A stretch of 64,000 nucleotides of DNA from Escherichia coli O127:H6 str. E2348/69 (lineage in GTDB: Bacteria; Pseudomonadota; Gammaproteobacteria; Enterobacterales; Enterobacteriaceae), in NCBI RefSeq assembly GCF_000026545.1, contig NC_011601.1, one strand, 5' to 3'. Both the position numbers and the translations under genes were made by a program. Below are positions 14,745-40,465 of the stretch, piece after piece. How positions within the stretch are numbered: the stretch's first letter is position 1; every line of letters begins with the position of its first letter. The notes under the pieces are model-generated. The model did no database searches. It was not told where the DNA came from and saw only the letters and a list, made by a program, of their open reading frames with translations.

Positions 14745-15398
14745 TTATTCCGAGTCTGGATATTTAAATTCTGAAAGAATCAGTTCTAGTTCTTCATAAT
14801 CTTTTTCCCACCATTTCATTTTTTCCAACTTATTTCTTGTATCATCATTAAAACGATAATAAAGTACTTTACAAGGAACCCCTGCAGCAACAGCATAAGG
14901 AGGTATATTCTTAGTAACAACTGAGCCAGCCCCAATAATAGCGCCATTACCTACAGTTACTCCATCCAATATAACCGTATTCGCACCCAAACATACATCA
15001 TGACCAATCATAATTCTTTTGGTTTCTTCAAATGTATGCGAATCCGGAGGTGGACAGCTTTTAGAAAGCCAATGTATTGAATTTTTCCCATAACAGAATG
15101 GATGCGTCGATATATATTCCGACACAGGATGTTTACCTAATCCCATTTTCACACTTTCTGCAATAGAACAATACCGACCGATTGACGTGTTCAATATTGT
15201 ACAATTCCTCTGAATATAAGTATGACGTCCAATATTTGAATTATAAAGCAATGTATTGTTATACACTTTTATATTCTCCTCAAATGTTACATGCCTTATT
15301 CTCGCTCCGGGATAAACACTAACGCCTTGAAAACATAGAATAATGTTTTTAATTAAATAGCATATAGGTAACAGTATATATTCTTTTATTATATTCAT
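14745..15398 (-). CDS. Hexapeptide-repeat O-acetyltransferase
   Basis: Left-handed beta-helix repeats (IGHDVCLGANTVILDGVTVGNGAIIGAGSVV); ATG at 15398 overlaps wzx stop as ATGA; ORF track extends to a GTG at 15461. Confidence 0.7.
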   Translation of the reverse strand: MNIIKEYILLPICYLIKNIILCFQGVSVYPGARIRHVTFEENIKVYNNTLLYNSNIGRHTYIQRNCTILNTSIGRYCSIAESVKMGLGKHPVSEYISTHPFCYGKNSIHWLSKSCPPPDSHTFEETKRIMIGHDVCLGANTVILDGVTVGNGAIIGAGSVVTKNIPPYAVAAGVPCKVLYYRFNDDTRNKLEKMKWWEKDYEELELILSEFKYPDSE

Positions 15399-16666
15399 CT
15401 TGCTCTCATTAATAAAAATATTCCGCCAATTGAAAAAGATATACTTGCATATGCTATCCACATCATGCCGCCAATTGAAATAGAGTTATTTCCTTTCATG
15501 AAATGGAATAAAATAAACATGCTTAATGCAGAAATAATATTACTGAACAGTATAATTCCCCCTGCGTTTAATCGAACAAGGTTTGTATAGATAAATGTAT
15601 ATGGTATATTTATTAAAACTGAGAGGCAAATAAGAGCTAAAGCCCCCCCTCCATGATTAGCTATATAATGATTTCTTGTCCATAAATATAAAATATCAGA
15701 TGAAAATATTATTGTCAGACCAATAGGGAAAGCTAATACCAATAGCATAATTATCATTTTTTTTAACGATAGAACATTAAATATACTCTTTTCCCCTTGT
15801 GATGATAAAGCTGGTAACAATGACTTCATCAAAGGATATTGTAGCTGTAAAAAAGATAATCCCAGTTGTGCAACAATAACATATACTCCATATAACTGTG
15901 TTTCCACGTAGTGTGATAATAATATTTTATCTAACTGTGAAACAAACACACCAACAATCACACCAAATGAAAATATATAGTTCTCTTTAACCAAATCAAT
16001 TAATTGAATCAATATATTATTATCTATTAAGCCTTTAAGATCTATATTATTGCGAGTAATCCATAAAAAATTAAAAATAAATTCTATACAGGTAACCACT
16101 GCGAAGGAAACTATATATACTATAGGTTCTGGATTTACCATCAATGAAATCAGCGCGACACAATGTTTACATGAAAAAAAACACACTTGGCTTAAATTAG
16201 TATTAAATTGCTTTTGAGTACCATTCCAAAAACCTATATTGAGATTATTTGCAAATTGAAATAGGAATTGAATTGCAAGCAATCTTATACAAAACTCTAA
16301 CTCCCTACTGCTATGCCCTGCATTAAACCATCTAAATGCCAACCAACCAGCCGAACTGGTTAGAAAAACCGCCCCAACAAAAGCAACAGCAATATATATC
16401 CAAAAATATGCAAAAAATATGTTTTCTGGCGTATTCGTTTTAGCAATATCGCGAGGCATAATCTGCGAACACCCAGCATCCAGAATAAGTAACATAGCCT
16501 GGATACTTAAACAAGCAGAGACGATACCCCATCCATGGGGACCTAGTAGCTTGATATAAAAGGGTATAAGGACTATTATCCCCCCCCCCATCCAAATCAT
16601 ACCAATGTAATTAAACATTGTGTTTCGTAAGAATATATTATTTTTAAAAGAGGATATTATTGACAT
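15395..16666 (-). CDS. wzx: O-antigen flippase
   Basis: 423 aa polytopic membrane protein, position and hydrophobicity typical of Wzx; contains a G9 tract (plus-strand C9 at 16579-16587). Confidence 0.7.
   Translation of the reverse strand: MSIISSFKNNIFLRNTMFNYIGMIWMGGGIIVLIPFYIKLLGPHGWGIVSACLSIQAMLLILDAGCSQIMPRDIAKTNTPENIFFAYFWIYIAVAFVGAVFLTSSAGWLAFRWFNAGHSSRELEFCIRLLAIQFLFQFANNLNIGFWNGTQKQFNTNLSQVCFFSCKHCVALISLMVNPEPIVYIVSFAVVTCIEFIFNFLWITRNNIDLKGLIDNNILIQLIDLVKENYIFSFGVIVGVFVSQLDKILLSHYVETQLYGVYVIVAQLGLSFLQLQYPLMKSLLPALSSQGEKSIFNVLSLKKMIIMLLVLAFPIGLTIIFSSDILYLWTRNHYIANHGGGALALICLSVLINIPYTFIYTNLVRLNAGGIILFSNIISALSMFILFHFMKGNNSISIGGMMWIAYASISFSIGGIFLLMRAR
16579..16587. repeat. Homopolymeric C9/G9 tract inside wzx coding sequence
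   Basis: CCCCCCCCC on plus strand, encoding GGG (MIWMGGGIIVL) near the Wzx N-terminus. Confidence 0.9.
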
Positions 16667-16678
16667 ATAGATGTTTTT

Positions 16679-18052
16679 TTATTTTTCTTTTAATAAATTA
16701 ATAATAATTGCCGTATTATTTTCCATCACGAGCTGATCACCTCTTGATTCAACGTTCAAACGCACAACAGGTTCGGTGTTGGAGGAGCGCAGGTTAAAGC
16801 GCCAGTTGGCAAAGGCCATACTGATGCCATCGGTGCGATCCACCGCCAGCGCCTCACGGCTAAAATGCTGTTCCACGCGGTTAATCGCCTCAACGGGGTG
16901 CGTGAGTTTGCTGTTGATCTCACCACTTGCCGGAAAAGCCGCCATCCGGTCGCGCACCAGTTCGCCCAGCGTTTTCCCTTTCAGGCACACCAGTTCGGCG
17001 ACCAGCAGCCACGGGATCATGCCGCTGTCGCAGTAAGCGAAATCACGGAAGTAATGGTGGGCGCTCATTTCGCCACCGTAGATAGCGTCTTCCTTACGCA
17101 TACGTTCTTTAATAAAGGCGTGTCCGGTTTTCGACATTATTGGCGTACCGCCTGCGGCAGTCACCACATCAACGGTGTTCCAGGAGAGACGTGGATCGTG
17201 GATGATCTTCGCGCCGGGATTTTTTTCGAGGAACGCCTCTGCCAGCAAACCGACAATGTAGTAACCCTCAATAAACTGCCCTTTTTCGTCAAACAGGAAA
17301 CAGCGGTCAAAATCGCCATCAAAAGCAATGCCCATATCCGCGCCGTGTTTAATGACCGCATTGCGGGTGTCGTCGCGACATTCCGGCAGTAGCGGGTTAG
17401 GAATACCGTTGGGGAAATTGCCGTCCGGCGTGTTATGCACTTTGATTAACTCCACCGGTGCGCCGAGGGCTTTAAAGCGGGCTTCAATGGCGTCCACCAC
17501 CGGACCCGCCGCGCCGTTCCCGGAGTTAATCACCAGCTTGAGCGGCGTGAGGTTTTTGACGTTGATATAACCGAACAGGTGATCAACGTAAGCTTCACGC
17601 AGATTGATTTGCTGATAGCGACCGCGTTTGGTTTCATCGACGGGAGGGAAGTCGTTGGCTTCTGCCAGACGCTGGACATCGCGCAGTCCGGTATCACCGC
17701 TGATCGGGCGAGCCCCCTCGCGCACCAGCTTCATGCCGTTGTAATCCATCGGGTTATGGCTGGCAGTAACTTCGATGCCGCCATCCACGCCGAGATGGAA
17801 CGTAGCGAAATAGATCTCTTCGGTGCCGGACATGCCGATATCCAGCACATCGACGCCCGCATCCTGTAAACCTTTCGCCAGCGCCAGTTTTAAGGTTTCG
17901 CTGGTGAGGCGGACATCACCACCTAAAACAATAGTTTTCGGTTTGAGAAATTCGCCATAGGCACGCCCAATACGCCAGGCAATATCTTCATTCAGTTCTT
18001 CGCCTAATTTTCCGCGAATATCGTAGGCTTTAAAGCAGGTTAATTTTTTCAT
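16679..18052 (-). CDS. manB: Phosphomannomutase, O-antigen copy
   Basis: 457 aa [16 protein letters not shown]..., TASHNP active-site motif; near-identical to the colanic copy cpsG except for the last ~20 residues. Confidence 0.93.
16750..18052. repeat. manB direct repeat, copy A (O-antigen locus)
   Basis: Aligns with 33740-35042 at offset 16990, roughly 96 percent identity by eye; homology ends exactly at the ATG. Confidence 0.8.
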
Positions 18053-18055
18053 TTA

Positions 18056-19513
18056 TTAGTCATCTATTTTGTAACGTTCTTTTTGACGAACAATATCATC
18101 CTCACCTAAATAATCTCCTGAACTAACTTCAATAAGATTGAGAGGAATTATACCTGGATTTTCAAGGCTATAAGTAGCACCCAGAGGAATATAAACGGAT
18201 TCATTAGCAGTAACTAAGAAAGTTTTATTATTTAACGTTACTTTTGCTGTACCTGAAAGGACAATCCAATGCTCTGAACGATGATGATGCATACGTAAGG
18301 ATAGCCCTTCCCCTGGTTTAACGACAATCTTTTTGACCTTATATCGATCTCCCTGTTCTATAGCATCAAACTTTCCCCAAGGACGAAATTCCTCGCGATG
18401 TGATAGATATTCAGAACGTTCTTGCATTTTAAGCATTTGAACAATTTTCTTAACATCCTGAACTTCGGATTTTTTTGAAACTAGAATTGCATCTTTCGTC
18501 TGAACAATAACAATATCCTCCACACCTACAGCGGCTACTAAGGCTGACTCCGAATGAATATAATTATTTTTTGTATTATAAGTCAGGATATCACCTTTGC
18601 AAACGTCCCCTGTAGGAGTTTTATCACTAACGTCCCACAATGATTGCCAAGATCCAACATCGTTCCAACCAATATCAACGGGATAGACTATACAACGCTT
18701 TGTTTTTTCCATTACTGCAAAATCAATTGATTCCGATGGACAATTTTGAAAAACATCTTTCGAAAGTCGTATAAAATCAAGATCATGGTAGGACGAAGAA
18801 ACTGTTTTTTCACATATATCGTATATATCAGGTCTGTATTTTTTTAACTCCTCTAAATATACTGATGCTTTGAACATAAACATCCCACTATTCCAGAGAT
18901 ATTTACCTGAGGAGATATACTCTTCAGCCCTTGAGCGATTAGGTTTTTCAACAAATTGTTCCACGTGATAGAATGTATTACCAACTCCACGTTGTGATTC
19001 TTTAACTATACTCCCTTTTTCTATATAACCGTAACCAGTTTCTGCATAATCAGGAATAATACCAAATGTTAAAATATTTCCTTGTTCAACAATTGAAATG
19101 GAATTTTTAATAGCATTACAAAAAACATCTGTTTTGTTTATAACATGGTCAGCTGCAAGAACTAAAAGTATAGGATCTTGTTGTTCATTACGCTTTAAGG
19201 CTGTAAATGCTGAAAGTGCTATAGCTGGTGCAGTATTTCTTCCACATGGTTCAAGAATAATGTTATCGCTTAATTGGTTTATTTGACGCAATTGTTCTGC
19301 GACCACAAAACGATGCTGCTCGTTAGTTATTACTAATGGAGTTTCGCAAGAAAGCGGGGATAGTCGTAATAAAGTTGACTGTAATAAAGTATTCTCACCT
19401 GATAATTGCAGAAATTGCTTCGGATAGTGCTCTCTTGAGAGGGGCCAAAGACGGCTACCCGTACCACCAGCCATTACAACAGCAATCAACGGTACATCAG
19501 ACATTTTTGACAT
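18056..19513 (-). CDS. manC: Mannose-1-phosphate guanylyltransferase, O-antigen copy
   Basis: 485 aa; [11 protein letters not shown] motif; AT-rich and clearly diverged from the colanic copy cpsB. Confidence 0.9.
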
Positions 19514-20000
19514 CCTTTTTATCTAAACCAATAACAGCACTTGGATCATGATTAAAATAAGCTCGGCTGTTAGCGTGAACATTGTTACTGGCGAGCAGCG
19601 CGTCCGGCGTCAGCCAGCGGTAATCGTCATGCTGCTCATCCGGCAGTAACAGCTCTTCTTCCGCTACCCTGAAGCGAAAACCGAGCACCACATAGTGAGT
19701 GGTGAAATCCGTGCCGGAGAAGTTGTCGTCATAAAAGTGCTGCCAGACACCGTAAAACTGGCCTGCTGTTATCTGCAGACGCAGCCCCAGTTCCGCCATC
19801 GTCAGCCGCTCAAATGCGGCTTCCAGCGTTTCGTCTTTCTGCACGCGCCCTCCCGGCACAAACCAGTAACCCTGCGCCGGGCGGTTGGTTCTTTTGCCAA
19901 GCAGAAACTCGCCGCGACTGTTCTCGACAATAAAGTCGAGAGAGACAAGCGGAGTGGAGCGCACTACCGTGGCAAAGTCTTCCTGACGTAAAAACATCAT
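19497..20000 (-). CDS. gmm: GDP-mannose mannosyl hydrolase (Nudix), O-antigen copy
   Basis: 167 aa [13 protein letters not shown]...; Nudix box [23 protein letters not shown]; matches the colanic copy closely except for the C-terminal ~18 residues. Confidence 0.9.
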
Positions 20001-20965
20001 TACCCCCGAAAGCGGTCTTGATTCTCAAGGAACCACTGGTAAGTGCTGGCAAGCCCCGCTTCCAGTGAGATTTCGTGATACCAGCCAAGCTGATGCAGGC
20101 GCGTCACATCCAGCAGTTTGCGCGGCGTACCATCCGGTTTACTGGCATCAAAAACCACCCGACCTTTGTAACCCACCACTTTGGCGATGGTTTGCGCCAG
20201 TTCACGGATGGTGCAGTCAACGCCCGTGCCGACGTTAATGTGCGACAACATCGGCTGGGTGTTTTCCAGCCAGACTTCGTGCGCCAACTCCATCACATGA
20301 ATGCTTGCCGCCGCCATATCATCGACGTGCAGAAATTCGCGCATCGGTGTACCGCTGCCCCACACCACCACGTCCGGTGCATTCTGTGCCGTCGCCTCGT
20401 GGAAGCGACGCAGCAATGCAGGTATCACATGGGAGTTACTCGGGTGGAAGTTGTCATGCGGCCCGTACAGGTTGGTCGGCATGACTGAGCGGTAATCGCG
20501 TCCGTACTGGCGATTGTAAGATTCGCACAGTTTGATCCCGGCGATTTTGGCAATAGCATAAGGCTCGTTAGTCGGCTCCAGCGTGCCCTTCAACAGCTCG
20601 CTTTCTGCCATCGGCTGTTTTGCCAGTTTCGGGTAGATACAGGACGATCCAAGAAACAGCAGTTTGTTCACGTCGTTCTGATGCGCGGCGTGAATGATGT
20701 TGCTCTCAATCATCATGTTCTGGTAGATGAAATCCGCCGGATAGGTGTTGTTGGCAACAATGCCGCCCACTTTCGCCGCCGCCAGATAGACCTGGTCAAT
20801 GCGTTCGCTGGCAAAGAAATCATGCACCGCGCGGCTGTCCAGCAGGTTCAGCTCGTCGCGGGTGCGTAATACCAGTTCCACATCACCGCGCTGTTCGAGC
20901 TGCCGCCTGATGGCAGAACCGACCATTCCGCGATGGCCAGCGATAAAAATGCGTTGTCTACTCAT
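20000..20965 (-). CDS. fcl: GDP-L-fucose synthase, O-antigen copy
   Basis: 321 aa; protein identical to the colanic copy at 38376-39341. Confidence 0.95.
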
Positions 20966-20967
20966 GC

Positions 20968-22089
20968 TTATGACTCCAGCGCGATCGCCACGTCGTAGCC
21001 GTGAGATTTCAGCAGAGAGTGTTTTTTCGCCGCTTCGAGGTCATTAGCCACCATTTCAGACACCATCTCTCTGAGGGTGATTTCCGGTTTCCAGCCCAGT
21101 TTTTCGTGCGCTTTGGTCGGGTCGCCGAGCAGCGTTTCAACTTCAGCCGGACGGAAGTAGCGCGGATCAACCTTAACGATTACATCTCCAGGTTTAACTG
21201 CTGGAGCATCCTCACCATTAACAGAAACCACTATCCCCTTCTCATCTACACCTGTGCCTTCAAAACGCAGTTTGATTCCGACTCGCTCCGCCGCCATTTC
21301 CACGAACTGACGCACGGAGTACTGAACGCCGGTCGCGATGACGAAATCTTCCGGCTGTTCCTGTTGCAGCATCATCCACTGCATTTTTACGTAGTCTTTG
21401 GCATGGCCCCAGTCACGCAGGGAATCCATATTGCCGAGGTACAGGCACGATTCCAGCCCCTGGGCGATGTTTGCGATTGCGCGGGTGATTTTGCGGGTAA
21501 CGAAGGTTTCGCCGCGGCGCGGGGATTCATGGTTGAAGAGAATACCGTTACAGGCGTACATGCCGTAGGATTCGCGGTAGTTAACGGTGATCCAGTAGGC
21601 ATACAGTTTGGCGACCGCATACGGAGAGCGTGGGTAGAACGGCGTGGTTTCTTTCTGCGGAATTTCCTGCACCAGACCGTACAGTTCAGAAGTGGAAGCC
21701 TGATAAAAACGGGTTTTCTTTTCCAGACCGAGGAAGCGGATCGCCTCCAGCAGGCGCAGCGTACCCATCGCATCGACGTCAGCGGTATATTCCGGTGACT
21801 CAAAAGAAACCGCAACGTGACTCATTGCGCCCAGGTTGTACACTTCATCCGGCTGCACTTCACACAAAATGCGCGTCAGGTTGGAGGTATCTGTCAGATC
21901 GCCATAATGCAGATGGAATTTCGGGTTGCAGGTGTGCGGATCCTGATAAATGTGATCCACGCGCTCGGTGTTGAATGACGATGCACGACGCTTAATACCA
22001 TGCACCTCGTAACCTTTTTCCAGCAGAAACTCTGCCAGGTAAGAACCGTCTTGTCCGGTTATGCCAGTAATGAGAGCGACTTTAGCCAT
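20968..22089 (-). CDS. gmd: GDP-mannose 4,6-dehydratase, O-antigen copy
   Basis: ATG at 22089 gives [18 protein letters not shown]...; ORF track begins at an upstream TTG (22119). Confidence 0.93.
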
Positions 22090-24479: not shown

Positions 24480-25373
24480 TTATTCGCTTAACAGCTTCTC
24501 AATCCCTTTACGGAACTTCGCCCCTTCTTTCAGGTTGCGTAGTCCATACTTCACAAACGCCTGCATATAACCCATTTTTTTACCGCAGTCGTAGCTGTCG
24601 CCGGTCATCAGCATGGCATCAACGGACTGTTTTTTCGCCAGCTCGGCAATGGCATCAGTCAGCTGAATACGTCCCCATGCACCAGGCTGAGTACGTTCAA
24701 GTTCCGGCCAAATATCGGCAGAAAGCACATAGCGACCAACGGCCATGATGTCTGAGTCCAGCGTCTGCGGCTGATCCGGCTTTTCGATGAATTCAACAAT
24801 GCGGCTGACTTTACCTTCACGATCCAGTGGTTCTTTTGTCTGAATGACTGAGTATTCAGAGAGCTCACCCGGCATACGTTTTGCCAGCACCTGGCTGCGT
24901 CCCGTTTCATTGAAGCGCGCAATCATGGCAGCAAGGTTGTAGCGTAGCGGGTCGGCGCTGGCGTCGTCGATCACAACGTCTGGCAGCACCACGACAAATG
25001 GATTGTCACCAATGGCAGGTCGCGCACATAAAATGGAGTGGCCTAAACCTAAAGGTTCACCCTGACGCACGTTCATAATGGTCACGCCCGGCGGACAGAT
25101 AGATTGTACTTCCGCCAGTAGTTGACGCTTCACGCGCTGTTCAAGGAGAGATTCTAATTCATAAGAGGTGTCGAAGTGGTTTTCGACCGCGTTCTTGGAC
25201 GCATGAGTTACCAGGAGGATTTCTTTGATCCCTGCAGCCACAATCTCGTCAACAATGTACTGAATCATTGGCTTGTCGACGATCGGTAGCATCTCTTTGG
25301 GTATCGCCTTAGTGGCAGGCAACATATGCATCCCAAGACCCGCTACCGGTATAACTGCTTTTAAATTCGTCAT
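24480..25373 (-). CDS. galF: UTP-glucose-1-phosphate uridylyltransferase paralogue
   Basis: 297 aa [43 protein letters not shown]... Confidence 0.95.
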
Positions 25374-33671: not shown

Positions 33672-35042
33672 TTACTCATTCAGCAACGTCAGCAGAGTTC
33701 GCGTTCGCGCTTCCATCAGCGGCACATCACCGCGCGATTCCACATTCAACCGCACCACCGGTTCGGTGTTGGAGGTGCGCAGGTTAAAGCGCCAGTCGGC
33801 AAAGGTCATGCTGATGCCATCGGTACGATCCACCGCCAGCGCCTCACGGCTAAAATGCTGTTCGACGCGATTAATCGCCTCAACGGGTTGCGCCAGTTTG
33901 CTGTTGATCTCACCGCTTGCCGGAAACGCCGCCATCCGGTCGCGCACCAGTTCGCCCAGCGTTTTTCCTTTCAGGCACAACAGTTCGGCTACCAGCAGCC
34001 ACGGGATCATGCCGCTGTCGCAGTAAGCGAAATCACGGAAGTAATGGTGAGCGCTCATTTCGCCACCGTAGATGGCGTCTTCCTTGCGCATCCGTTCTTT
34101 AATAAAGGCGTGTCCGGTTTTCGACATTACCGGGGTGCCGCCTGCGGCAGTCACCACATCAATAGTGTTCCAGGAGAGACGCGGATCATGGATGATCTTC
34201 GCGCCGGGATTTTTTTCGAGGAACGCTTCTGCCAGCAGGCCGACAATGTAGTAGCCCTCGATAAACTGCCCTTTTTCGTCAAACAGAAAACAGCGGTCAA
34301 AATCGCCATCAAAGGCAATGCCCATATCCGCGCCGTGTTTGATGACCGCATTGCGGGTGTCGTCGCGACATTCCGGCAGCAGCGGGTTAGGAATACCGTT
34401 GGGGAAATTGCCGTCCGGTGTGTTGTGTACTTTGATTAATTCCACGGGCGCGCCGAGGGCTTTAAAGCGGGCTTCGATGGCGTCCACCACCGGACCCGCT
34501 GCGCCATTCCCGGAGTTAATCACCAGCTTGAGCGGCGTGAGGTTTTTGACGTTGATATAACCGAACAGGTGATCAACGTAAGCGTCACGCAGATTAATTT
34601 TCTGATAGTGACCGCGTTTGGATTCATCAACGGGAGGGAAGTCGTTGGCTTCTGCCAGGCGCTGGACGTCGCGCAGTCCGGTATCACCGCTGATCGGGCG
34701 AGCCCCTTCGCGCACCAGCTTCATGCCATTGTAATCCATCGGATTATGGCTGGCGGTAACTTCGATGCCGCCATCCACGCCGAGATGGAACGTGGCGAAA
34801 TAGATCTCTTCGGTGCCGGACATGCCAATATCCAGCACATCGACGCCCGCATCCTGTAAACCTTTCGCCAGCGCCAGTTTTAAGGTTTCGCTGGTGAGAC
34901 GAACATCACCGCCTAACACAATGGTTTTCGGTTTGAGAAATTCGCCATAGGCGCGACCAATGCGCCAGGCAATATCTTCATTCAGTTCTTCGCCTAATTT
35001 CCCGCGAATATCATAGGCTTTAAAGCAGGTTAATTTTTTCAT
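33672..35042 (-). CDS. cpsG: Phosphomannomutase, colanic acid copy
   Basis: ATG at 35042 gives [16 protein letters not shown]...; ORF track extends upstream to 35090. Confidence 0.95.
33740..35042. repeat. manB direct repeat, copy B (cpsG, colanic acid locus)
   Basis: See copy A. Confidence 0.8.
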
Positions 35043-35132
35043 GTCGTTACCCTTTTTCAGGCAATAGTTGGCCCTGACCGAAGCGGCCAATTTTGTTTTT
35101 GTCGTTATTTACACCGCGGTTTCGCATTCATT

Positions 35133-35233
<101 letters not shown>

Positions 35234-35234
35234 T

Positions 35235-36671
35235 TTACACCCGTCCGTAGCGATCCGCGAAGCGCACCACATCATCCTCTTCGAGATAAGAGCCGGAGCG
35301 CACTTCAATTAAATCGAGCGGAATTTTCCCCGGGTTTTCCAGGCAGTGCGTCGCCCCCAGCGGAATATAAATGGACTCGTTTTCACCAAGCAGTTTGATA
35401 TCACCGTCAATAGTGACTTTTGCCGTTCCCGCAACCACTACCCAGTGTTCCGCGCGGTGATGGTGCATCTGTACTGACAAGCCTTCGCCCGGTTTCACGG
35501 TGATGCGTTTCACCTGGTAGCGGTCGCCCGCGTCGATAGAGTCATATTTGCCCCACGGACGATACACTTCGCGATGTACCCGATGCTCATGACGACCATC
35601 GGCTTTGATCTGCTCGACCACTTTTTTCACATCCTGCACCGCGTTACGGTCGGCAATCAGCACCGCATCTTTGGTCTGCACCACTACCAGATCTTTCACC
35701 CCGACGGTGGTGACCAGGCCAGATTCGGCGTATACATAGCTGTTTTCAGTTTTGTGATTAATCACATCGCCGTGGCAAACGTTGCCCTCGGCGGTGTGGG
35801 CGCTGATCTCCCATAATGAAGACCAGGAACCGACATCGCTCCAGCCCGCATCCATCGGCACCACAACGGCATCTGCCGTACGTTCCATGACCGCGTAATC
35901 CACCGACTCTTCCGGGCAGGCCAGAAACGCTTCTTCATCCACGCGAATAAAATCGAGATCCGGATCGACGGCGCTCATCGCTTTTTCACAGGCGTCGAGA
36001 ATATCCGGGCGATATTTTTTCAGTTCTTCGAGATAGCGTCCGGCGCGGAACAGGAACATGCCGCTGTTCCAGTAATATTCGCCGCTTGCCACATAGGCCT
36101 GGGCGGTTTCCAGATTCGGTTTTTCGACAAACTGCGCCACTTCAAAGGCCACCGTATCCTGCTCACCCGCAGACACTTCACCGCGACGTATATAGCCATA
36201 ACCGGTTTCTGGTAGATCCGGCACAATGCCAAAGGTCACCAGCTTGCCCGCTTCGGCATACGGCATGGCATTACGCACGGCGGCACGGAACGCGTCTTCA
36301 TCGGCAATCACATGATCCGCCGCCAATACCAGCATTAACGGGTCGCTCTCCGGGCTATGACGTTTTGCCGCCAGCGCCGCCAGTGCAATGGCAGGTGCAG
36401 TGTTACGCCCTGCCGGTTCGAGAATAATGTTCTCGGTGAGTTTGTTCAGTTGACGCAGCTGTTCCGCGACAATAAAGCGGTGCTGCTCATTGCAAATCAC
36501 CACCGGGCTTTCGCACTCCACGCCGTTCAGGCGACAGATGGTGGTTTGCAGCATGGTGAGATCGCCTTTCAGGCATAAAAACTGCTTGGGGTAAAGTACG
36601 CGGGAAAGCGGCCATAAGCGGCTACCAGAGCCACCTGCCATCACAACTGGATAGAGTTTCGACTGCGCCAT
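35235..36671 (-). CDS. cpsB: Mannose-1-phosphate guanylyltransferase, colanic acid copy
   Basis: 478 aa [23 protein letters not shown]... Confidence 0.95.
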
Positions 36672-37897: not shown

Positions 37898-38376
37898 AAT
37901 CCGGGTACTCCGGCACGCTTCTCAGCGAGAAAATAGGCGCGGCTGTTAGCGTGAACATCGTTACTGGCGAGCAGCGCGTCCGGCGTCAGCCAGCGGTAAT
38001 CGTCATGCTGCTCATCCGGCATTAACAGCTCTTCTTCCGCTACCCTGAAGCGAAAACCGAGCACCACATAGTGAGTGGTGAAATCCGTGCCGGAGAAGTT
38101 GTCGTCATAAAAGTGCTGCCAGACACCGTAAAACTGGCCTGCTGTTATCTGCAGACGCAGCCCCAGTTCCGCCATCGTCAGCCGCTCAAATGCGGCTTCC
38201 AGCGTTTCGTCTTTCTGCACGCGCCCTCCCGGCACAAACCAGTAACCCTGCGCCGGGCGGTTGGTTCTTTTGCCAAGCAGAAACTCGCCGCGACTGTTCT
38301 CGACAATAAAGTCGAGAGAGACAAGCGGAGTGGAGCGCACTACCGTGGCAAAGTCTTCCTGACGTAAAAACATCAT
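37894..38376 (-). CDS. gmm: GDP-mannose mannosyl hydrolase (Nudix), colanic copy
   Basis: 160 aa (wcaH); Nudix box present; tandem ATGs at 38376/38373. Confidence 0.93.
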
Positions 38377-39341
38377 TACCCCCGAAAGCGGTCTTGATTC
38401 TCAAGGAACCACTGGTAAGTGCTGGCAAGCCCCGCTTCCAGTGAGATTTCGTGATACCAGCCAAGCTGATGCAGGCGCGTCACATCCAGCAGTTTGCGCG
38501 GCGTACCATCCGGTTTACTGGCATCAAAAACCACCCGACCTTTGTAACCCACCACTTTGGCGATGGTTTGCGCCAGTTCACGGATGGTGCAGTCAACGCC
38601 CGTGCCGACGTTAATGTGCGACAACATCGGCTGGGTGTTTTCCAGCCAGACTTCGTGCGCCAACTCCATCACATGAATGCTTGCCGCCGCCATATCATCG
38701 ACGTGCAGAAATTCGCGCATCGGTGTACCGCTGCCCCACACCACCACGTCCGGTGCATTCTGTGCCGTCGCCTCGTGGAAGCGACGCAGCAATGCAGGTA
38801 TCACATGGGAGTTACTCGGGTGGAAGTTGTCATGCGGCCCGTACAGGTTGGTCGGCATGACTGAGCGGTAATCGCGTCCGTACTGGCGATTGTAAGATTC
38901 GCACAGTTTGATCCCGGCGATTTTGGCAATAGCATAAGGCTCGTTAGTCGGCTCCAGCGTGCCCTTCAACAGCTCGCTTTCTGCCATCGGCTGTTTTGCC
39001 AGTTTCGGGTAGATACAGGACGATCCAAGAAACAGCAGTTTGTTCACGTCGTTCTGATGCGCGGCGTGAATGATGTTGCTCTCAATCATCATGTTCTGGT
39101 AGATGAAATCCGCCGGATAGGTGTTGTTGGCAACAATGCCGCCCACTTTCGCCGCCGCCAGATAGACCTGGTCAATGCGTTCGCTGGCAAAGAAATCATG
39201 CACCGCGCGGCTGTCCAGCAGGTTCAGCTCGTCGCGGGTGCGTAATACCAGTTCCACATCACCGCGCTGTTCGAGCTGCCGCCTGATGGCAGAACCGACC
39301 ATTCCGCGATGGCCAGCGATAAAAATGCGTTGTCTACTCAT
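38376..39341 (-). CDS. fcl: GDP-L-fucose synthase, colanic copy
   Basis: 321 aa (wcaG); identical protein to the O-antigen copy. Confidence 0.95.
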
Positions 39342-39343
39342 GC

Positions 39344-40465
39344 TTATGACTCCAGCGCGATCGCCACGTCGTAGCCGTGAGATTTCAGCAGAGAGTGTTT
39401 TTTCGCCGCTTCGAGGTCATTAGCCACCATTTCAGACACCATCTCTCTGAGGGTGATTTCCGGTTTCCAGCCCAGTTTTTCGTGCGCTTTGGTCGGGTCG
39501 CCGAGCAGCGTTTCAACTTCAGCCGGACGGAAGTAACGCGGATCAACGGCGATAATCACATCACCCGGTTTAACGCCCGGCGCGTCATGCCCGGTGACGG
39601 AAACCACAATGCCCTTCTCTTCAACGCCCGTGCCTTCAAAGCGCAGTTTGATGCCCAGCTGTGCTGCCGCCATTTCCACGAACTGACGCACGGAGTACTG
39701 AACGCCGGTCGCGATAACGAAATCTTCCGGCTGTTCCTGTTGCAGCATCATCCACTGCATTTTTACGTAGTCTTTGGCATGGCCCCAGTCACGCAGGGAA
39801 TCCATATTGCCGAGGTACAGGCACGACTCCAGCCCCTGGGCGATATTGGCGATTGCGCGGGTGATTTTGCGGGTAACGAAGGTTTCGCCGCGGCGCGGGG
39901 ATTCATGGTTGAAGAGAATACCGTTACAGGCGTACATGCCGTAGGATTCGCGGTAGTTAACGGTGATCCAGTAGGCGTACAGTTTGGCGACAGCATACGG
40001 AGAGCGTGGGTAGAACGGCGTGGTTTCTTTCTGCGGAATTTCCTGCACCAGACCATACAGTTCAGAGGTGGAAGCCTGATAGAAACGGGTTTTCTTTTCC
40101 AGACCGAGGAAGCGGATCGCCTCGAGCAGGCGCAGCGTACCCATCGCATCGACGTCTGCGGTATATTCCGGTGACTCAAAAGAAACCGCAACGTGGCTCA
40201 TTGCGCCCAGGTTGTACACTTCATCCGGCTGCACTTCACGCAAAATGCGTGTCAGGTTGGAGGTATCACTCAGGTCGCCATAATGCAGATGGAATTTCGG
40301 GTTGCAGGTGTGCGGATCCTGATAAATGTGATCCACGCGCTCGGTGTTGAATGACGATGCACGACGCTTAATACCATGCACCTCGTAACCTTTTTCCAGC
40401 AGAAACTCTGCCAGGTAAGAACCGTCTTGTCCGGTTACACCGGTGATGAGAGCGACTTTTGACAT
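39344..40465 (-). CDS. gmd: GDP-mannose 4,6-dehydratase, colanic copy
   Basis: 373 aa [18 protein letters not shown]... Confidence 0.95.

Follow-up and report, generated by a model that had tools for sequence, protein, structure and literature searches.

The O-antigen manB of Escherichia coli O127:H6 is a chimera of a colanic-type body and an AT-rich 3′ tail

Introduction

Colanic-like and chimeric manB genes, lying beside a manC that is not colanic-like, have reportedly been described in Salmonella enterica by Jensen and Reeves in 2001 (Microbiology 147:599). As in the E. coli gene analysed here, the Salmonella genes are said to be near-identical to the colanic-acid manB/cpsG, to stand next to a low-GC manC of non-colanic type and to have part of the gene at low GC; the features by which that type is recognised, namely a remaining low-GC segment homologous to manB and a sharp junction, are both present in E. 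coli O127. What sets the O127 case apart from the Salmonella one is the host, a junction located to nt 1268-1284 and a gene body divided into three segments of different origin.

In E. coli O157, the original manB is recorded as having been replaced by the colanic manB (Samuel 2004, as cited in PMC3158064), and Iguchi 2011 found the O157 manB to be more variable than its neighbours, which was ascribed to intragenomic gene conversion with cpsG (PMC3158064). O157 resembles O127 in that its manB, >95% identical to cpsG, stands in a GDP-sugar module of otherwise low GC, and in our panel this gene breaks at nt 1320 and has an AT-rich tail of its own. The two serogroups differ in the neighbouring genes: gmd, fcl and gmm of O157 are native (39% GC in the O-antigen gmd-fcl, with 71% identity to its colanic counterparts), whereas those of O127 and O86 are colanic-type too, which gives two direct repeats and not one. 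Closer still to our locus, the O86, O90 and O127 clusters share their first seven genes at >96%, while their downstream genes were replaced by recombination (Feng 2005, as summarised in PMC7685785); the alignment presented here puts the start of the O86-specific block inside manB.

Colanic overwriting of an O-antigen manB is already well documented in E. coli and Salmonella, and O127 is another, clean and well-resolved, instance. Our literature search found no paper on the junction or the mosaic of the O127 manB specifically. The case opens no new question, and its mapping is finer than before.

Results and discussion

Layout of the locus

We analysed a window of 64,000 nucleotides from contig NC_011601.1 of E. 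coli O127:H6 str. E2348/69 (RefSeq assembly GCF_000026545.1). Positions are those of the window, nt numbers count from the ATG of the gene, and all relevant genes of both polysaccharide clusters lie on the minus strand (Table 1). In the direction of transcription, the colanic-acid cluster includes gmd (39344-40465), fcl, gmm, wcaI, cpsB (35235-36671), cpsG and wcaJ, and runs on to wcaM. An epimerase gene and galF (24480-25373) lie between it and the O127 O-antigen cluster, which comprises, in order, a galE-like gene, a GT4 glycosyltransferase gene, gmd, fcl, gmm, manC, manB, wzx, an acetyltransferase gene, wzy and two glycosyltransferase genes, and is followed by gnd. The manB under study thus sits within the O-antigen cluster, between galF and gnd and beside a low-GC manC. 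The ATGs of manB and of the resident cpsG, at 18052 and 35042, are in direct orientation.

Table 1. Features of the O127 manB locus and its colanic-acid counterparts (window coordinates).
Feature	Position	Strand	Basis
O-antigen manB, phosphomannomutase, 457 aa, chimeric ORF	16679..18052	minus	ORF list and translation; NCBIfam NF011943 at full length
manB native 3′ tail, AT-rich, nt 1284-1374 with the stop, left over from a diverged manB	16679..16769	minus	Composition, tail alignments
manB 3′ recombination junction interval, nt 1268-1284	16769..16786	minus	Last pre-junction mismatch to resident cpsG at nt 1267; O127-private synonymous changes from nt 1284
manB body segment C, nt 783-1283, colanic-type, private to O127/O90	16770..17270	minus	5,426-genome comparison
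manB body segment B, nt 460-782, recent patch equal to the EC958 (ST131) cpsG allele	17271..17593	minus	0 mismatches; run-length permutation
manB body segment A, nt 1-459, colanic-type, common to O86 manB	17594..18052	minus	Mismatch counts
Native low-GC manC, unconverted, directly upstream of manB	18056..19513	minus	GC 0.36; weak partial alignment to cpsB
O90/O127 wzx, AT-rich serogroup-specific gene downstream of manB	15395..16666	minus	GC 0.318; RefSeq annotation
Resident colanic-acid cpsG, 456 aa, paralogous direct repeat, offset 16,990	33672..35042	minus	BLAST
cpsB-cpsG spacer, 192 nt, absent at the manC-manB junction	35043..35234	minus	Sequence
Sister colanic-type tract: gmd, fcl and 5′ part of gmm; direct repeat of 37930-40459	19554..22083	minus	97.6% over 2,532 aligned positions

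Region 11800-24500 matches two E. coli O127:H6 chromosomes, NZ_LT827011 and NZ_LT903847, at 100%, and another assembly of E2348/69, NZ_CP059840.2, at 99.8% over the 81% of the region that this assembly retains. The body of manB is identical in five independent complete assemblies and the tail junction is present in ten. An assembly artefact was considered as a source of the chimera and was ruled out, the locus being identical in five assemblies.

A sharp junction inside manB

Over nt 1-1283, manB differs from the resident cpsG at 69 positions (94.6% nucleotide identity), and residues 1-427 of the two proteins differ at 12 (97.2% amino-acid identity). The original prediction, made from the sequence before this analysis, had put the likeness at about 96%, a figure that matches neither measurement and falls between them. 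BLAST, which aligned 16721-18052 with 33711-35042, returned 93.9%. The longest perfect runs between the two genes are 77, 71 and 59 nt, and their composition is alike, with a GC of 0.543 in the manB body and 0.546 in cpsG.

A maximum chi-square scan of manB against cpsG set the break after nt 1307 (window 16745/16746), with 74 mismatches in the 1307 positions to the left and 29 in the 64 to the right, and 0 of 2000 permutations reached this value. The scan also served to look for a gradual decay of identity along the gene, which would have spoken against a breakpoint, and the break it found is sharp. Synonymous changes private to the O127 manB, relative to the eight cpsG alleles compared, occur at nt 1284, 1287, 1293, 1299 and 1302; since they start at nt 1284, the DNA junction lies between nt 1268 and 1284. 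This is ~10 codons ahead of the point at which the proteins diverge, after ...NVESRGD, and the protein junction appears later because the intervening 12-residue stretch is invariant. The break that had been expected near residue 435 is therefore inside the gene, as claimed, but in the DNA it lies earlier.

On the 5′ side, identity begins at the manB ATG, which is preceded by TAATAA (the manC stop), whereas cpsG has at this place the 192-nt spacer that follows cpsB and within which REP elements have been described (Iguchi 2011, PMC3158064). The prediction that homology stops exactly at the ATG agrees with this start and with the low-GC manC upstream. As nt 1-29 hold no site that differs between manB and cpsG, the 5′ junction can be placed only between the ATG and nt 29. 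The central claim, a colanic-type body joined within the gene to an AT-rich 3′ tail, with native AT-rich flanks, was upheld by the sharp break and by the fall in GC3 from 0.62 in the body to 0.26 in the tail.

The AT-rich tail

The tail (nt 1284-1374) has a GC of 0.297 and is AT-rich as predicted. It had also been called unrelated to cpsG, and this part of the claim falls: the tail is 61% identical to the cpsG tail at the nucleotide level and encodes a diverged but homologous ManB C-terminus, which aligns to the C-terminal residues of the Xanthomonas PGM/PMM chain 5kl0_A, including ...LLETRTQEISNLL. Its identity to the manB tails of O78 and SE11 is 78%. The CpsG tail, for its part, was invariant in all eight cpsG alleles that we translated.

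A full-length low-GC donor of the tail was sought in three ways. Searching E. coli DNA with the tail gave just 10 O127/O90 records and, at 78% similarity, the O78 and SE11 tails; the longer native 3′ part of the O86 manB, used as a query against E. coli DNA, matched only 80 O86-type records; and a search of the last 59 residues of ManB against 5.8 billion proteins returned short fragments only, with the O127 tail in one metagenome fragment only. Because no full-length low-GC donor was found in E. coli DNA or in the protein search, the original native manB is deduced from the relic alone. ManB C-terminal fragments from Salmonella, Citrobacter, Lelliottia and Iodobacter have a common 20-residue block, after which they diverge.

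Chimeric manB genes in other serogroups

All seven colanic-type O-antigen manB genes that we sampled (O127, O86, O157, O78, SE11, NCTC9066 and SX48) are chimeric, in a set of serogroups that was found through similarity of the tail and of manC and is not a random sample. Their private tails have a GC of 0.18-0.39, as against 0.56 in the cpsG tail. We placed the 3′ breaks by manB states found in none of the nine cpsG alleles of the final alignment; in cpsG numbering they lie at nt 1127 in O86, 1317 in O127 and O78, 1320 in O157, 1332 in SE11 and 1333 in NCTC9066 and SX48. Six of the seven thus lie in one zone of ~20 nt, nt 1317-1333, and together with the O86 break at nt 1127 this indicates that the junctions mark the last conserved block of the gene. 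At the other end, the manB genes of O157, O78 and NCTC9066 have kept their own first five codons.

The O86 gene retains ~250 nt of native 3′ sequence. The low-GC block specific to O86 starts inside manB, at ~nt 1127-1144, where the likeness of O86 to O127 ends, which makes manB the junction of the swap between the O86 and the O90/O127 clusters. In six of the seven clusters, among them O127, the adjacent manC has a GC of 0.36-0.38, and only a 110-nt stretch of the O127 manC aligns with cpsB, at 75%. In every sampled cluster manB has been overwritten, manC almost never. Of the 5,426 complete E. coli genomes, about 1,000 carry cpsG-type manB sequence at two or more places.

We hold it to be highly likely that the O127 manB is a native low-GC gene overwritten patchwise by E. 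coli cpsG sequence, with conversion between the paralogues the likely route. The gene would have been imported as a low-GC gene together with the low-GC manC, and its coding sequence would later have been overwritten by colanic-acid cpsG sequence in several separate patches. The process was likely homologous, non-reciprocal recombination (gene conversion) between the direct-repeat paralogues 17 kb apart, and probably also allelic replacement as the cluster moved between lineages. We infer that each tract has to end in sequence common to both copies, in which case the colanic-type part would spread no further than the last conserved blocks, and shared sequence would be what limits the junctions. 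Successive exchanges would push the colanic-type part outward to the last conserved block at each end, i.e. the gene start and the phosphate-loop block, and the O86 gene, with its longer native 3′ sequence, looks like an earlier stage. Of the native gene there would remain a private, AT-rich stretch, ~30 codons long, attached to the serogroup-specific wzx.

The invariance of the cpsG tail across eight alleles is consistent with an unchanged donor; allelic replacement during horizontal transfer of the cluster leaves the same pattern. The reverse direction, in which cpsG would be derived from manB, was rejected, as cpsG has the composition of the colanic cluster and an invariant tail.

A different account of the tails is that the private C-terminal segment and the AT-rich tail were kept by selection, for instance on wzx expression or on an interaction of ManB, in addition to any lack of shared sequence. 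Every sampled cluster has a private tail, and in O127 the manB stop is just 12 nt before wzx, both of which fit such selection. The tails, however, vary widely in sequence and in length (51-72 nt), the genes downstream of them differ (wzx, a wavE-family gene, a stealth-domain gene, gnd), no motif shared among them was seen, and the C-terminus is variable across genera generally, so that we regard selection on the tail as improbable. With similarly low probability, the clustered junctions and private tails together could reflect selection, either for expression signals of the downstream genes or for a barrier to conversion or deletion leaving manB, and the contrast between manB and manC might then be part of the same rule.

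A slightly less probable origin, and in our judgement an unlikely one, is capture, in which a single illegitimate event would have placed a duplicate of the whole colanic manB in the O-antigen cluster and joined it to the remaining end of an otherwise deleted native gene. Jensen and Reeves reportedly discussed capture of a colanic manB, which we count in its favour, as we do the start of identity exactly at the ATG with no shared sequence upstream. Against it, each of the seven serogroups has a fusion that keeps both the reading frame and the homologous register at either end, the first codons are still native in three of them, and O86 retains its native 3′ stretch; this graded series fits repeated homologous exchange better than it fits seven precise illegitimate fusions. 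Patchwise overwriting, the reading that we prefer, bears further on how the body itself is built.

Mosaic structure of the colanic-type body

The body of the gene is a mosaic. In a panel that set the O127 manB against eight other O-antigen manB genes and eight cpsG alleles, from nine other strains, the nearest relative changed along the gene. Segment A has 4 mismatches to the O86 manB (strain 88COLEC) and 21 to the otherwise near-identical O90-type manB (strain S1); outside the O127/O86 group, its best match among the matches listed in the sampled ranking of 5,426 genomes was 96.5%. Segment B (323 nt) has 0 mismatches to the cpsG of EC958 (ST131), 13 to the resident cpsG and 14 to the O86 manB. 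A run as long as this was obtained in 1 of 5000 permutations, and in 2 of 5000 when third positions only were used. For segment C, the 5,426 genomes yielded only 10 records, all O127/O90, with an identity of at least 99%, and the next best was at 96.6%.

Pairwise comparisons tell of the same structure. Between the O127 manB and the O90-type S1 manB, 21 of 22 differences fall within nt 30-405, and the O127 and O86 genes mismatch at 2 of the first 449 nt and at 37 of the 651 that follow, a distribution reached by 7 of 2000 permutations. A single-breakpoint maximum chi-square test of manB against the EC958 cpsG was not significant (167/2000), because the identical patch is internal; the longest-run test is the apt one for this comparison. 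Among the matches listed, E. coli copies outside the O127/O86/O90 group differ from segments A and C (nt 1-459 and nt 783-1283) by at least 3.4%, and no sampled cpsG matches either of them above ~96.5%; either the sampling missed their donors, then, or these tracts are old. A mosaic of tracts that differ in their nearest relatives and stay inside the region shared by the paralogues is a hallmark of gene conversion, and segments A, B and C display it. These patterns speak for several separate replacements, in part later than the divergence of the O86, O90 and O127 clusters.

Across the panel, the manB bodies and the cpsG alleles form one cloud, with pairwise identities of 92.6-97.6% and no separate manB clade, and the O127 manB is 93.0-97.1% identical to the other 14 panel sequences (cpsG and manB). 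The cpsG alleles are 2.5-4.5% apart among themselves (95.5-97.5% identity in the panel), and published data put them ~3% apart between lineages (PMC5359238). The major part of manB falls within this allelic range and has the GC of the colanic cluster.

The body had been predicted to be a single conversion tract, older than the one in gmd-fcl. Under this reading, which we now find very unlikely, one tract was copied from the resident cpsG and diverged in place. Divergence from the resident cpsG is indeed higher for manB (5.4%) than for gmd-fcl (2.4%), and the manB mismatches are evenly spread (the observed maximum chi-square was attained in 1956 of 2000 permutations). The identity of nt 460-782 to the EC958 allele, at a place where the resident cpsG differs, and the patchy differences from the O90-type and O86 genes speak against a single tract, and the 5.4% is close to the divergence of cpsG alleles among themselves. 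The nearest sampled cpsG is 97.1% identical to manB, which is also the identity of the O-antigen gmd-fcl tract to its nearest colanic copy; taken with the ordinary allelic divergence, this leaves a greater age for manB unsupported. With mismatches evenly spread and no perfect run longer than 77 nt, none of the segments came from the resident cpsG. Since donors come from a species-wide pool of alleles, divergence from the resident copy is useless for dating conversion events.

Ordinary paralogues held similar by purifying selection, or an error of assembly, can be dismissed with near certainty: ManB is a highly conserved enzyme, but third codon positions, which hold 58 of the 69 mismatches in the body, are still 86% identical, and protein-level selection alone cannot hold synonymous sites so similar, nor do a GC3 that switches within the gene, neighbouring genes only ~70% identical to their colanic counterparts or the agreement of independent assemblies fit either account.

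Function of the chimeric enzyme

The chimeric ManB scores 1039.1 bits on the NCBIfam profile NF011943 (CpsG subfamily; cut-off 801), with its residues 1-456 covering the 456-position profile, as compared with 1051.9 bits for the resident CpsG. The motifs TASHNP, DGDFDR, GEMSAHH and RSSNTEP are all present, and the protein aligns with 5kl0_A over residues 4-455. In this family these motifs are, respectively, the phosphoserine loop, the metal loop, the sugar loop and the phosphate loop. O127 strains make a fucose-containing O antigen (PMC7685785). Taken together, the intact motifs and this antigen suggest that the chimeric ManB is most likely a working phosphomannomutase.

Direct repeats and deletions

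That manB forms a direct repeat with the colanic locus at an offset of 16,990, able to recombine with it, was also foreseen, and both parts were borne out: the ATG-to-ATG distance is exactly this, and deletions of the same type have been published. The repeat comprises 1.28 kb at the identity given above. RecA-dependent exchange in E. coli has a minimum of roughly 25-30 nt, which the three longest perfect runs exceed. Recombination between manB and cpsG could delete 16,990 bp and leave a hybrid with the 5′ part of cpsG and the 3′ part of manB, as predicted from the order and orientation of the two genes. The genes lost would be manC and the O-antigen genes upstream of it, galF, the epimerase gene and wcaM to wcaJ.

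The window itself holds no manB-cpsG deletion. Such a deletion is recorded for the O14 type strain (Jensen and Reeves 2004, as cited in PMC7685785), and in a long-term evolution experiment 23-kb manB-cpsG deletions arose in 8 of 12 populations (bioRxiv 10.64898/2026.06.14.732165). Both involve the same pair of repeats as described here, with the intervening DNA lost and a cpsG 5′-manB 3′ hybrid left behind, whereas in E2348/69 a deletion used the gmd repeat instead. In NZ_CP059840.2, wcaF is followed by a hybrid gmd and then by the O-antigen fcl, gmm, manC and manB; a clean change of the informative sites from O-antigen to colanic type, located between window positions 21340 and 21451, corresponds to an 18,376-bp deletion via the gmd/fcl repeat. 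Two direct repeats link the O-antigen and colanic-acid clusters of E2348/69, and recombination at either would remove part of both in one step.

Two practical points concern sequence records. Draft assemblies probably break at the manB/cpsG repeat. In RefSeq, the O-antigen manB is named 'cpsG' and 'colanic acid biosynthesis phosphomannomutase CpsG', i.e. a gene of the O-antigen cluster carries a colanic-acid name.

Distribution of native and colanic-type genes

Across the seven O-antigen clusters compared (O127, O86, O157, O78, SE11, NCTC9066 and SX48), the phosphomannomutase gene manB was of the colanic type in every case, and manC was native, with a GC content of 0.36-0.38, in six, including O127. 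The sole intermediate among the seven was the manC of O78, which has a GC content of 0.495 and shares 86% identity with cpsB, its colanic counterpart. Comparison of the 3' ends of manB in O86 and O127 placed the switch from the block common to both serogroups to the serogroup-specific block within manB itself, at about nt 1127-1144, and the 3' part of the O86 gene is low in GC, with matches in 80 O86-type records only. On the other side of manC, the colanic-type gmd-fcl tract terminates inside gmm, near 19554, and the O-antigen gmm is therefore a further chimera, in which a colanic-type 5' part is joined to a 3' part that is low in GC and runs into the start of manC.

Coordinates of genes, compared segments, the crossover interval and IS elements (L numbers are fetched O-antigen loci)
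Feature	Position	Remark
O-antigen manB	window 16679-18052	minus strand
manB 3' end, O127	window 16679-16925	compared with O86
manB 3' end, O86	L001 3756-4005	compared with O127
Native manC	window 18056-19513	compared with manC in L001-L004, L008, L009
O-antigen gmm	window 19497-20000
gmd crossover interval	window 21340-21451	colanic counterpart near 39716-39827
Hybrid gmd region, NZ_CP059840.2	L010 17000-19900
ISAs1-family pseudogene, O157	L002 6114-7045	just downstream of phosphomannomutase gene
IS1B, EC61	L007 6117-6810	just downstream of phosphomannomutase gene
ISEc1, SE11	L014 1018-2363	between galF and wzx

Recombination between the two gmd copies

One genome deposited as E2348/69 (NZ_CP059840.2) has wcaF fused to a hybrid gmd, with fcl, gmm, manC and manB of the O-antigen cluster next in line. 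Here the O-antigen copy of gmd has recombined with the colanic copy, and the resulting deletion of 18,376 bp has taken out cpsB, cpsG, wcaJ to wcaM, galF and the initial two O-antigen genes; the stock is predicted to make neither O antigen nor colanic acid.

Database naming and IS elements

Because the O-antigen manB passes the CpsG model, RefSeq/PGAP names it and its equivalents "cpsG: colanic acid biosynthesis phosphomannomutase CpsG", and genomes with an O-antigen manB therefore seem to carry two cpsG genes. Phosphomannomutase fragments labelled "partial", 50-100 aa long and made up of the C-terminus only, also number in the hundreds in the protein database (as in hits P0001-P0120) and probably mark breaks in draft assemblies at the manB/cpsG repeat. 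Separately, IS elements or their remnants were seen within or at the edge of three fetched O-antigen clusters (O157, SE11 and EC61).
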